From NCBI GenBank assembly GCA_038087875.1, contig CM075996.1, positions 3,846,001 to 3,910,000 of the forward strand: 64,000 nucleotides of DNA. The letters run 5' to 3'. Shown one piece after another: positions 4,371 through 52,702 of this stretch. The notes below the pieces were generated by a model that saw only the letters and a list, made by a program, of their open reading frames with translations, made no database searches and was not told the DNA's origin. Both the position numbers and the translations under genes were made by a program. Position 1 is the first letter of the stretch, and each line of letters opens with the position of its first letter. Source of the DNA: Malacoraja senta. Its lineage: Eukaryota.

Positions 4371-4467
4371 CATCCAAATCCTTATAGACTACGGTGGCAC
4401 AGGTGCCGTTCCCATGGAAACACTGCTTCCAAATGTCCATGCTGTAGCCGGCTGTGCTCCACCAAGC
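4371..4467 (-). CDS. EMP1: EMP1-like coding exon 2 (first extracellular loop)
   Basis: CAG acceptor (AG at 4469-4468), 97 nt, GTAAGA donor. Encodes AWWSTAGYSMDIWKQCFHGNGTCATVVYKDLD, with the PMP22/claudin W..W..C..C signature and an N-G-T glycosylation sequon. Confidence 0.9.
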
Positions 4468-42900: not shown

Positions 42901-43612
42901 AGGAAGTGTCTGAGCTACAGTTCGAATCTGATCCCTGGACAAGCTCTTTTTCAACTCAGAAGACAGACACAAAACAGCTGGAGTATGTGTAGGAAGGAAC
43001 TGCAGTGGCTGGTTTAAACCGAAGATAGGTACAAAATGCTGGAGTAACTCAGCGGATCAGGCAGCATCTCTGGAGAAAAGGAATAGGTGACGTTTTGGGT
43101 CGAGACCTCTATTCTTTCCCCATAAATATGCAATTACTTTCTCCTTCAATTATTTATCAAAGTTTATCCATCCAGGCAGAGTCTGCCAAATCTCAAAACA
43201 TGTTGGTGAAAAGGACATAAATCTATGGATAGACGACATTTCGGACGGATGGGTCTAATGAAAGATCCCGACCCGAAACATCGCCTGTCCATTCCCTCCA
43301 ACGATGCTGCCCGAGGAAGGGTCTCGACCCAAAACGTCACCCACTCCTTTCCTCCAGAGATGCTGCCTGACCCACTGAGTCACACCAGCCTTTTGTGTCT
43401 ATCTTCGGTGCAGACCAGCATCTGCAGTGCCTTCCTACACACACTCCTTCAACTCAGCTCCCTGGTGTGGAGCTGTCAATCTAATATCTGTATCGCTCGT
43501 GACTAGAGTTCTTCAGATGAGTCAGAAGATTGTGGGCGAAAATCCCACCCCACATTTACAAATCTGGACGGAGGCTCCAGTGCAGTATTGAAAGATCGCT
43601 ACTCCTGGAGAT

Positions 43613-43761
43613 CTTCTCCGTGGGTTGTCACCTTGTCGTGGCGGAGAAGCTCGTGTGTGGTCCTGAGATCCTGAGAGCGATGCCGTCTGGAGCTGTGCTC
43701 CTGGTAGGGCCACCCATGGCGGTAAGGTCGAGGGGGAGGTCTCTGACAAAGAGTCAATCCA
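43613..43761 (+). ncRNA. Putative HDV-like self-cleaving ribozyme
   Basis: P1 CTTCTCC(43613-19)/GGAGAAG(43643-49); P2 TGGGTTG(43621-27)/CAATCCA(43755-61); P3 ACC/GGC around L3 TTGTCGT; long P4 region; J4/2 GA-C(43747)-AAA. Confidence 0.6.
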
Positions 43762-44014
43762 ACCGAGACCTCGACGGTGGAACATGCGGAGGACGATGGC
43801 TGACCTTAGTGGAGCGTCACAACGGCTGGGAAGGCGGATGAAGGCCGTAGCAGAAAAGGGTCCTCGGTCGTCTTGGACTCCACGCCCACTGGATCCTGAC
43901 CCAGATCTGTCAAGGACTGTCTGTGCACCAGTCTCCCCTCGTTAAACAAAGTCACGCACTGGCGTCCTCCATGAGAGGACAGTCATACTCGTTTCGAGTG
44001 ACCTCCGAAGATTT
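43613..44014 (+). mobile_element. RTE/BovB-related short non-autonomous retroelement with 5' HDV-like ribozyme fold
   Basis: TSD CTGGAGAT at 43605-43612 and 44015-44022. The 5' part (CCTTGTCGTGGC..TAGGGCCACCCA..GGTC..CTGACAAA..TCCA) resembles, from memory, the 5' region of BovB/Sauria-SINE/Rex3-type RTE elements. Confidence 0.75.
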
Positions 44015-47000
44015 CTGGAGATACTGCCGTTGAATAAAAACTGAGCTTTTGCTTGTTCTCTGAGTGGCATAAAGGACGGCAGGGTAGTTAGTTACCACTG
44101 TTTGTTTGCCTTCATTAATATTTATATCTCAATCAATGAAACCCTCACACATTGCTGTTTGTGGGAGTCTACTGACAGAAACTGACTTGTGTTTCTTGAA
44201 TTAACATAAGGTTAACACTTGAAGTACTTCAACTGTATAATAATGAGAACTCTCGAGACTTTCAAAAGATAATTTATCTTATAATCTAAAGTCTTTTCTA
44301 TTCTTGGATATTTTTTAAATTATTACATTTTTCTGGGATGCGCGCATTAGCGGCCAAAGCAATAATTAGCGCTGTCGCTAAATTTTCTCGCTGATCCGAC
44401 ACAGGAGGGTCTTTAATAGAAGATTATTAAAGATCCTCCTACGTGCTGTGTAGGAAGGAACTGCAGATGCTGGTTTACACTGAAGTTGGACACAAAATGC
44501 TGGAGTAACTCAGCGGGTCAGGCAGCATCTCTGGAGAAAGCGAATAGGTGACGTTTTGGGTCAAACCCCTTCTAAGTTCATGTTCATAAGTGACAGGAGC
44601 AGAATTAGGCCATTCGGCCCATCAAGTCTACTCTCCCATTCAATCATGGCTGATCTAACTCTCCCCCTCAACCCCATTCTCCTGCCTTCTCCCCACAATG
44701 ACACCCGTACTAATCAAGAATCTATCTATCTCTGCCTTAAAAATATCCATTGACGGCCTCCACAGCCTTCAGCGGCAAAGAATTGGTGCTTGGGTTTCTC
44801 CCACTCCAAAGACTTACAGGTTTGTAGTTTAAATGGCTTTGGTAAAAATTGTCAATTGTCCCTAGTGTATAGGATAGTGCTAATGTGTGAGATGATAGCT
44901 GGTCGGCACACACTCGGTGGGCCGAAGGGCCTGTTTCCGTGCTGTATCTCTAAACTAAACTAAGCAATCAACTGCTCTTAGATATGAAGATAGGACATCA
45001 ACCTCAAGCGTTAACTGTTCGCTCCACAGATACATCCGAACACCAGACCGCTCCATCCACGACCACAAGCAAGCAGATTGTGGACGCAGCCCAGACCGTC
45101 ACACAAACCGACCTCCCTTCCACTCTGGCGCTGTCATTGCTGTAAGGCAGCAACTCTACCGCTGCGCCACCAAGCTGCACCAGCGCTTCTATTTTACTTT
45201 TTGACGTATGACATTCACAAACCTAACACCAACACTTTAATCGGCCAGTGAAATGAAGCCATTAATGGAGAGCAGCTGTTTGCTCGCACTTAAATCAACC
45301 CCGTTGACCTCAAAGGAAGAGAGCAAGTGGTGCTGCCAACAAGCTCAGAACAACAGAAGAAAACCATGCGTTTTATAGGGAAAAAAGTTAAACCATTCTT
45401 AAGTTTTAGATTAAAGATATTGCTGGGCCAACACACTAAAGTACGTCATGCAAAACAATAAAGATGCTGGAACTCTGAAAGGAGGCAAAATAAGCCGGAA
45501 ACATTTAGCATTTGCAGAGAGCAAAACACTAGTGAATGCTTCAGGTCAATGCTTGCAGTAGGGTTAGAGGATGGCATCTTTCCCCAAAGGAAATTAATAT
45601 TCAATCCGGGACAAGCGTTTAAAAATAGTAATGAAGAAAATAATGGCATTGAAAGATGGCAAAGCCCTTGGACCAGATCTTTATATCAATTTTAAAGGAA
45701 GTACAATTAAAAAAAACCACTGCAGATAGTCTAACTATAATTTTACAAAGTCCTCTTGTTTCAGAAGCCATTTCTTTAGATTGAAATTGAACCAAAAGAC
45801 TGCAGATGGTGCGAATTTAAAAGGAAAGCTTACAGTGTTGAGAATCATCTGCAGAGATAGGAACAAAGCCAGTGGTTTAAGTCAATGACTCCTCATCAGA
45901 ACTGCTTGATGATGGGACATTGACCTGAGACTTTAACTTGTGGACTTGCAGGTTAATTGGCCTCTGCCAATTGTCCAGATAGTGTGGGTTAGAACTAGTG
46001 CATGGGGTAATTGTTTGTTCAGCACGGACTCAGTGGGCCGAAGGGCCTGCTTTCACCTTGTATCTCCAAAACTAAAATAACTGTTTCTCTCTCCACAGAT
46101 GCTGGCTGACCCGCTGGAGTGTTTCATGAAGTTACTGTTTACTTTCAGAGTGGAGGTTTCTTTAACTTGCGGTAGGGCTGCTGCCTCACAGCGCCAGAGA
46201 CCCAGGTTTGATCCTGACCTCGGGTGCTGCCTGCGCAGAGTTTGCACGCTCTCCCTGTGACCTGCGTGGGTTTCCTCCGGGCGCTCCAGTTTCCTCCCAC
46301 GTTCCAAAGACGTGCAGGTTTGTCGGTTAATTGACTTGAGAATACATTGTAAATTGTCCCCGGTGTGTAGGATAGTGCCAGTGTACATGGCGATCGCTGG
46401 TCAGCGCGGACTCGGTGGGCCGAGGGGGCTTGTTGCCACGTTGTACCTCTGAATGTAAAGATCAGGTCTGAAGAACAGTCCCAACTTGAAATATCACCGA
46501 CCCTTGTCCTCTGGTATGCTGCCTGACCCGCTGAGTTATTCCAGCATTTTCGTGTCTTTCCTTGGTAAATTGTCCCTAGTGTGTAGGATGGAGGCAGTGT
46601 ACGGGTGATCAATGGTCGGTGTTGACTCGATGGGCCGAAGGGCCTGTATCCACGCTGTATCTCTAAGCTAAACTAAACTAAACTCTCCACATCTGAATCC
46701 TTGGCATTCCGGCATTCCATCGCAAGGCCGAAGATGCAGAACACAAAGTATTTTAAACAAGGTCGAAGCTCGGACAGTTTAGTGGGACTTGCTATCCTGA
46801 CTCCCATATGGTGTATGATTTGTTTGGGCGGTGGGGGGGGGAGGGGGGGGGGCATGTGATTATGGCACTGTATGTCAGCAAGAGATTAAATAATACCTAA
46901 GGTTGTCAGAGACGGAGGATTTGTTGTTTACCAGTATATTGCATACGCACTGCGTAATCGACTCACAGACATGCATAGAAATAGTCTAGAACAGCAGAGT

Positions 47001-50778: not shown

Positions 50779-51060
50779 CCAAGACCTCAACGGTGGAACA
50801 GGCGAAGGACGATGGCTGACCTTAGTGGAGCGTCACGACGGCTGGGAAGGCGGATGAAGGCTGCAGCAGAAAAGGGTCTCCAGTCGTCTTGGACTCCATG
50901 CCAATGGATCCTGACCCAGATCTGTCAAGGACCGTGGGGTGGCTGTCTGTGCACCAGTCTCCCCACGTTGAACAAAGTCACGCACAGGCGTCCTCCATAT
51001 AGGGAATAGCACCCTGGAGACACCCATGGGCAGCCATGGCCGAAGGGGGCCTAAGAAGAT
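50779..51060 (+). mobile_element. 5'-truncated copy of the same RTE-related element (lacks the ribozyme region; different 3' tail)
   Basis: High identity to 43763-43972 (GACCTC.ACGGTGGAACA..GACGATGGCTGACCTTAGTGGAGCGTCAC..AAAGTCACGCAC). Confidence 0.85.
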
Positions 51061-52702
51061 AGCTCTACCATTTACTCGAATGTCAATAGACAATAGACAA
51101 TAGGTGCAGGAGTAGGCCATTTGGCCCTTTCGAGCCAGCACCGCCATTCAATGTGATCATGCCTGATCATCCCCAATCAGTACCCCCGTTCCTGCCTTCT
51201 CCCCATATCCCCTGACTCCGCTATTTTTAAGAGCCCTATCTAGCTCTCTCTTGAAAGCATCCAGAGAACCTGCCTCCACCGCCCTCTGAGGCAGAGAATT
51301 CCACAGACTCACCACTCTCTGTGAGGAAAAAGTGTTTCCTCATCTCTGTTCTAAATGGCTTACTCCTTATTCTTAAACTGTGGCCCCTGGTTCTGGACTC
51401 CCCCAAATTGTCCTAACATTTTTTTGCCTCCTGAAATGTTTCACATTGAACTTGTCAGAATTAACTTCCATTTTCTCAGGGAGTGTCCCGAGCCCAAAAC
51501 GTCACCCATGCCTTTTCGCCGGTCATGGTGCCCGACCCGCTGAGTTCCTCCAGCACTTTCTGTCTACCTTCCATCTTCACATTGGTCGGCCAAACTTGCA
51601 GCCGATGGGTATCGTAGCAAAATATTGAAACTGCTTCTTTATCTGTCTCACTCTACGGTTAGGCTGGGGCAAAAATACAGTAAACATTCGGGGACATTTA
51701 GGAAAACAAAGTTGTGGTTTATTGCAAAGTTGGGTGGATTTGACAGCATGTGGTGGCTGGGATAGTGAAGATGCTAAATCAATACTTTCAAGAGAGAGCT
51801 AGATAGGGCTCAAAGATAGCTGAGTCAGGGGATATGGGGAGAAGGCAGGAACGGGGATTGGGGATGATCAGCCATGATCACATTGAATGGCGGTGCTGGC
51901 TCGAAGGGCCGAATGGCCTACTCCTGCACCTATTGTCTAGTGTCTATAATTGGGCGGCTGTTGTGTTGCTGCCATACAGCACCTGCAGCGCCAGGGCCCC
52001 AGGTTCAATCCTGACTAAGTATGGAGTTTGTACGTTCTCCCCGTGACCCGCGAGGGTTTTGTCCGAGATCTTCGGTTTCCTCCCGCACTCCAAAGACGTA
52101 CAGGTTTGTGGGTTCATTGGCGTGGTGTATTGTGTAAATTGTCCCGTGTGTGTGTGCGTGTGTAGGGTAGGGTTAATGTGTGGGGATCGCTGGTCACCAC
52201 GGACTCGGTGGGCTGAAGGGCCTGTTTCTGTGCTGCATCTCTAAACTAAACAATTCCTAGTCGGTCTGCTCAACCTCCCTCAGGCTGCCTCCAAACCCTG
52301 TGGAGCTCACCTCACATCTGCTTTCAACCGAATTCTTATCAAATTTCAAGAATCTATGAAGCAACGAGTTCCAGGAACTTCAGCAGGTTCCTAGTTGACT
52401 GATGGAGGGGAACCTGCACATTTAGTTCAGCAGTGTCAGTTCAATTTTACCATGAACATCCAGGAAGTTGACATATTCTGTTGTAAGAAATCTGCTGCAT
52501 GTAAGAATTGCATTGTCCTATCTGGGACAATTGACAATAAAACACTCTTGATGTCCCTTGACTCTTGGATGTCTCCGAGGTTTGGTCCCTGATCTGTCCT
52601 TGGTTAGTTGTTGCTGGCTCAGCCAATTCCTCCCGGCAGCATGTGGCAAAATGGGATAAGTCAAGGGTCCAAGAGCATTATTGCTATCTACAGATATTCC
52701 TA

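Follow-up and report, generated by a model that had tools for sequence, protein, structure and literature searches.

The element at 43613-44014 on the forward strand of the analysed window (the whole 64,000-nt stretch of DNA) is very probably derived from an RTE LINE of the same genome by a deletion that left only the two ends. Its first 150 bases form an HDV-type fold with covarying helices, which likely frees the RNA immediately before C43613. The element is flanked by an exact 8-nt duplication, the 5' copy of which directly abuts C43613. The parts named in the first-pass annotation (the duplication, P1, P2, P3, L3, P1.1, and C43747) were all recovered by direct reading at the positions given here.

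43605-43612 (+): 5' target-site duplication of 8 nt, CTGGAGAT, ending in T at -1 (sequence)
43613-43972 (+): 5'-most 360 nt of the parent RTE LINE, 5' UTR including the predicted ribozyme fold (87.6% identity to L257:534-901 and 64% to the 5' UTR of the sister LINE L229)
43613-43619 (+): 5' strand of P1, with C43613 as +1 and predicted cleavage position (family comparisons)
43621-43627 (+): 5' strand of P2 (descriptor and covariation)
43630-43642 (+): P3 and 7-nt L3 (descriptor and copy counts); P3 strands 43630-43632 and 43640-43642 and L3 43633-43639 by direct reading; G43635 is the P1.1 partner of C43650
43643-43649 (+): 3' strand of P1 (family comparisons)
43650-43746 (+): J1/4 and the expanded, branched P4 domain, with helices 43681-43687/43718-43724 and 43689-43693/43697-43701
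43747-43750 (+): J4/2 with the predicted catalytic C43747, then AAA (C in 53/53 scored family copies)
43755-43761 (+): 3' strand of P2 (descriptor and covariation)
43973-44014 (+): last 40 nt of the parent LINE, a predicted hairpin and a decayed (GAT)n tail (90% identity to L257:4382-4421)
44015-44022 (+): 3' target-site duplication of 8 nt, CTGGAGAT (sequence)
50779-51065 (+): second copy of the family, 5'-truncated, with the alternative tail B (window self-comparison)
9100-8965 (-): member of a 116-nt family; further members at L032:1086-1201 (-) and in L353-L364

The window (1-64000) is dense with other interspersed repeats, with up to 57 overlapping self-matches.

Several RTE families related to the element were identified in the genome. 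A DUF6451 search found two with homologous heads, R1 and R2, neither of which is the parent. A third short family, S3, came from a pattern search, and its longer members run on into a frame that encodes endonuclease and RT (R3). Patterns for further variants of P3 and L3 each picked up a single mutated copy of one of the families described in this analysis. With the R3 endonuclease as the query, a family of about 55% identity was reached whose members carry the head of the 43613 element itself. One of them, L257 (3888 nt, with a 12-nt duplication), contains endonuclease and RT domains in broken frames and matches the element in two parts, positions 1-360 to 534-901 and positions 361-400 to 4382-4421. 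The identical two-part match is present in L256, L259, L260, L261, L262, and L264. The element originated by one internal deletion, in which the parent's first 360 nt were joined to its last 40 nt, and the RTE-related origin proposed in the first-pass annotation is borne out by these seven loci. About 500 nt upstream of the parent-LINE copy in L256 there is another head of this type (5341-5202, -), older and decayed.

Neither a tRNA head nor an A box or B box was found in the element. A Pol III SINE can be ruled out since both boxes are missing and the first 360 nt are wholly LINE-derived; on sequence grounds the element is a bipartite non-autonomous RTE. The LINE-derived ends and the missing boxes likewise agree with the earlier description of a non-autonomous element without a Pol III head. 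Judged from its domains, the parent falls in the RTE clade, as indicated by the endonuclease and RT, by a head shared with Repbase entries (compared by eye), and by the homologues of the sister LINE, which are EN-RT proteins of about 1060 aa, several of them named CFDP2. CFDP2 holds an RTE/BovB endonuclease. Internally deleted derivatives that keep the head were also observed for R1, R2, and R3 (L127-L206); those of R2 measure about 305 nt and those of R3 about 465 nt, and the R1 derivatives vary in length.

A first look at the 1.94-Gb genome gave 2911 candidates for the family of 43613-44014, of which 40 were scored and show 90-100% identity. Among 55 distinct loci, 33 end in tail A (a hairpin followed by (GAT)n, as in the 43613 copy), 19 in tail B (a hairpin followed by (AAG)n), and 3 in neither. 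The deletion junction was matched by pattern in 28 copies from these loci and is the same in 24 of them, which points to one founding deletion. Under a strict rule, a target-site duplication is found at 17/55 loci versus 3/218 mismatched-flank controls, and the same rule gives none at the other 38. The 30 best tail-A loci diverge by 0.7-4.2% from the majority, and the 43613 copy by 3.6%. In contigs from four of 24 public runs, coverage halts at the element ends. The element belongs to a dispersed multi-copy family with one shared junction and with duplications.

The tail-B subfamily (window 50779-51065; L032-L057, L208-L227) has the same head and body as the tail-A copies. Tail B resembles the 3' end of another RTE-like family (L266 and L272; 88% over 33 nt), indicating an exchange of tails between families. 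No LINE continuation was found among the 20 loci collected with the tail-B pattern, and the head of the donor family was not found when looked for. A rough duplex test around the deletion breakpoints revealed no end-joining helix better than controls, 77/300 of which were as good.

The position of the 5' end was examined in two kinds of locus sets. In four sets obtained by searching with the head, which are biased towards complete heads, C occupies +1 in 45/55, 23/25, 24/25, and 25/29 loci, and conservation is lost upstream of it. In sets fetched without the head, copies start at +1 to +3 in 13/20 loci for the tail pattern (two pairs in this set being duplicates), 9/14 for the parent LINE, and 17/24 for the sister LINE; the remaining loci are 5'-truncated or unmatched, and the upstream flanks are only 24-26% identical. 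No common extension 5' of P1 was seen in either kind of set. The claim that the element begins exactly at the first base of P1 thus holds, as most copies collected independently of the head start there and their upstream sequences are unrelated. A T at -1 is present in 29/55 loci and lies inside the duplication in five of nine flush cases; because it is not fixed and often falls within the duplication, we do not assign it to the element.

The first 150 bases follow the double-pseudoknot order, with a 7-bp P1 starting at +1 and crossing P2. A descriptor of the HDV-type fold, composed after the element had been seen and so measuring specificity only, has a single match in the window when both strands are searched, at 43613, and none when 32.8 kb of other DNA is shuffled ten times. 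Rfam gave no HDV-type match at E<=5, and the nested folding energy is unremarkable at z -0.81, a calculation that cannot show a pseudoknot. Covariation was analysed across four related RTE head families, S, R1, R2, and S3. Structure-anchored scripts were used to count the pairs in both helices, P1 and P2, because the MAFFT alignment A1 misregisters the 5' strand of P1 in two families. At the family level, 28/28 pairs of P1 are Watson-Crick, with both sides changed in five of seven columns, versus 9-17/28 in slid controls; in P2, 28/28 are paired, 26 of them Watson-Crick, versus 6-13 in slid controls. For P3, P1.1, and P4 together, 94% of the cells are paired versus 83% in shuffled and 37-55% in slid alignments, and 113 cells are changed on both sides versus 35.5 in shuffled ones. 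The number of pairs with double changes, 11/27, is not above chance, being matched by 190/500 shuffles. On this alignment, from which the P4 structure had itself been predicted, the large P4 covaries across the four families. The comparison of copies across the families supports covariation of P1 and P2, which the first-pass annotation had named as a check, and the two helices that it placed in P4 covary as well. Coming from four related families, these values are strong indications and not probabilities.

The core of the fold is nearly constant. P3 and P1.1 are invariant across the four families, save for the first P3 pair of R1, which is A.A in 24/24 copies. In the 53 family copies, 155 of 159 P3 pairs are formed; the 43613 copy forms two of three (direct reading gives an A43630.C43642 mismatch), as does R1 throughout. 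P1.1 is G-C in 53/53, 24/24, 25/25, and 27/28 copies of the four families. The reversed pair, C-G, occurs both in this genome's 116-nt family and in the metagenome locus L289, which supports P1.1. In the family copy at L207, both bases of the first P3 pair are changed, from A-U to G-C. The unpaired positions U-U..C-G-U in L3 and C-N-A-A in J4/2 are kept in the four families, the C followed by N-A-A occurring in 53/53 copies of S, 25/25 of R2, 27/28 of S3, and 17/24 of R1. The catalytic role of C43747, which is separated from P1 by 97 nt, is inferred by analogy with HDV-like ribozymes. Judged from the letters, P2 could also be extended up to P3 across a bulge by pairing T43628-C43629 with G43751-A43752.

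HDV, CPEB3, and R2 ribozymes have a G.U or purine-pyrimidine pair at +1. The four families have C:G instead, which excludes the canonical subtype only. This C+1:G pair, the U-U-G opening of L3, and the long P4 had been called atypical; they are indeed present, but the arrangement is less surprising than it seemed, since all are fixed in the four families and a precedent exists for C+1. In active trypanosomatid (Pr77) ribozymes, cleavage has been mapped to a start at C1, and a C1-A mismatch goes with low activity (PMC4035085, in part); a single-pair P1.1 is described for L1TcRz in the portion available of PMC3185411. The A.C mismatch of the 43613 copy is seen in 3/53 family copies, at a pair where R1 is always mismatched. 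The suggestion that it may have disabled this copy is not supported, as R1 has A.A in 24/24 copies and still a precise start; because R1 is mismatched at the same pair and yet mobile, the A.C mismatch does not show inactivation. In the 43613 copy, pairing of the flank with either P1 or C43650 is predicted, and flank interference of a similar kind is reported for L1TcRz in the same portion of PMC3185411.

We propose that copies would be transcribed by read-through from host promoters and that the fold would cleave the RNA at -1/+1 via C43747, leaving a compact 5' product that may withstand decay. The protein of the parent LINE would then recognise the 3' hairpin and (GAT)n tail and insert the element in trans by target-primed reverse transcription, and complete copies would start at +1 as a consequence of this cleavage and insertion. 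The modelled fold is likely self-cutting. Several points speak against this explanation: in R1 the catalytic position reads C in only 17/24 copies and P3 has an A.A pair, the flank of the 43613 copy is predicted to interfere with the fold, Rfam gives no match, and the full descriptor fits only 2 of 33 metagenome RTE loci, neither of them of the C+1 type. The main rival holds that the fold is real and mainly a protective or protein-binding 5' module, the start being set by a Pol II promoter inside the 5' UTR, with slow cleavage or none. Pr77 of L1Tc would offer a parallel, as it is described as promoter and ribozyme with start and cut both at +1 (PMC3185411, in part), and a stable HDV-like fold is reported to improve the use of R2 templates (PMC11331408, in part). 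The large P4 also covaries though P4 is nearly absent from the 116-nt family, which hints at some other job for it. Protection alone, however, would presumably not need the unpaired positions of L3 and J4/2 that are kept in four families, and we regard this rival as rather improbable.

Still less probable, and indeed very unlikely, is that the head is an inherited relic, the ribozyme having mattered for the parent LINE only and the short element having spread through its 3' tail alone. The low divergence of the copies from the majority is too small to show selection on the short element, and the exchange of tails fits such a spread; yet the complete head is kept with both tail types, most copies start at +1, and the short derivatives of R1, R2, and R3 keep their heads too. 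The idea that a loose pattern fits an ordinary Pol III-headed SINE by chance, with which the missing Rfam match and the folding z of -0.81 would agree, retains almost no probability: the element has no tRNA head or A/B box and stems wholly from LINE ends, P1, P2, and P4 carry compensatory changes, and the covariation together with the parent LINE refutes this explanation.

Other ribozyme-like heads were observed in the same genome and in metagenome loci. A second very short family, of about 116-140 nt plus (AAG)n and with 1382 first-look candidates, starts exactly with a minimal canonical HDV-like fold with G.U at +1, a C-G P1.1, and almost no P4. The descriptor fits 11 of 12 of its loci, and several have duplications of 9-12 nt. 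In the metagenome, 33 of 80 RTE loci, those with the N-terminus, were examined. HDV-like P3/L3 cores occur in ten of them (L275, L288, L289, L290, L291, L296, L297, L298, L303, and L323), 600-1100 nt upstream of the ORF, and the full descriptor is found in two, both of the G+1 type. Most of these cores are canonical, and in some of them J1/2 is long, measuring 282 nt in L289; no clear C+1 type was seen among the 33 loci.

A wider possibility, which we hold only tentatively and consider rather doubtful, is that vertebrate RTEs, BovB and the families from crocodiles and the coelacanth among them, have in common one undescribed, active HDV-like subclass with a flipped core (C+1:G and a G-C P1.1) and a conserved, branched P4 of 95 nt with a second job. 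Binding of the RTE protein and the start of cap-free translation would be candidates for this job. If true, such a module would explain why two-ended RTE miniatures are frequent (at least four families here) and why the heads accept foreign tails. The genome offers a matched set for comparison: besides the parent LINE, it contains two short derivatives that differ in their tails, three sister families whose helices are compensated, and, as a contrast, a minimal head of canonical type. Cleavage by the flipped form with its large P4 would add an abundant ribozyme subclass that Rfam misses. It would also matter for RTE-based gene writing, where the templates make use of the 5' and 3' UTRs of the element itself according to the available part of PMC13708176. 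Should this form fail to cleave, the fold would be preserved for some other purpose, which would be informative as well.

Among known systems, the closest in layout are the bipartite non-autonomous RTEs of Kojima 2018 (PMC5786205), which in the parts available list RTE-N2_Lch, RTESINE1/2, WALLSI3, and Bov-A. Like the 43613 element, these consist of RTE 5' and 3' ends only, retain the extreme 5' end of the LINE, carry a microsatellite tail, and show tail exchange, and a 5' ribozyme is given there as the likely reason that the LINE 5' end is kept. By eye, the head of the 43613 element matches the 5' ends of RTE-3_Crp, RTE-1_Crp, RTE-14_Lch, and BovB in the accessible supplement of the same paper; the available parts neither draw nor test the fold of this head, nor do they name the family or its parent. 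In the literature covered, which did not extend to Ruminski et al. 2011 or one review, no paper drawing or testing this head was found. Cleavage by RTE ribozymes at the 5' junction is stated in the part available of PMC3774820, and for the RTE HDV-like ribozymes of Ruminski et al. 2011, as cited in other papers, the cut coincides with the RTE 5' junction, as in the predicted fold of the element.

The R2 SIDEs and R2/R1 hybrid SIDEs of Drosophila, as described in the available part of PMC3414825, combine a 5' ribozyme with a LINE 3' end, and the hybrids carry the tail of another LINE, as tail B does here. They are site-specific in rDNA and rare, whereas the 43613 family is dispersed and abundant; the R2 SIDEs, tail-swapped hybrids included, are a direct precedent. 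Pr77 of L1Tc/NARTc and SIDER (PMC3185411 and PMC4035085, each in part) shares with the 43613 fold the C at +1, the single-pair P1.1, and an orientation of P1 unlike that of HDV and R2, and it is kept in non-autonomous derivatives and active in vitro. Pr77 is 77 nt long, belongs to the Ingi clade, and has promoter activity, whereas the 43613 fold spans about 150 nt, has a branched P4, and occurs in an RTE. In conclusion, internally deleted LINEs with ribozyme heads are already known from SIDEs, NARTc, and the elements of Kojima 2018, and the residual interest of the present element lies in the flipped core of its predicted ribozyme and in the conserved large P4.
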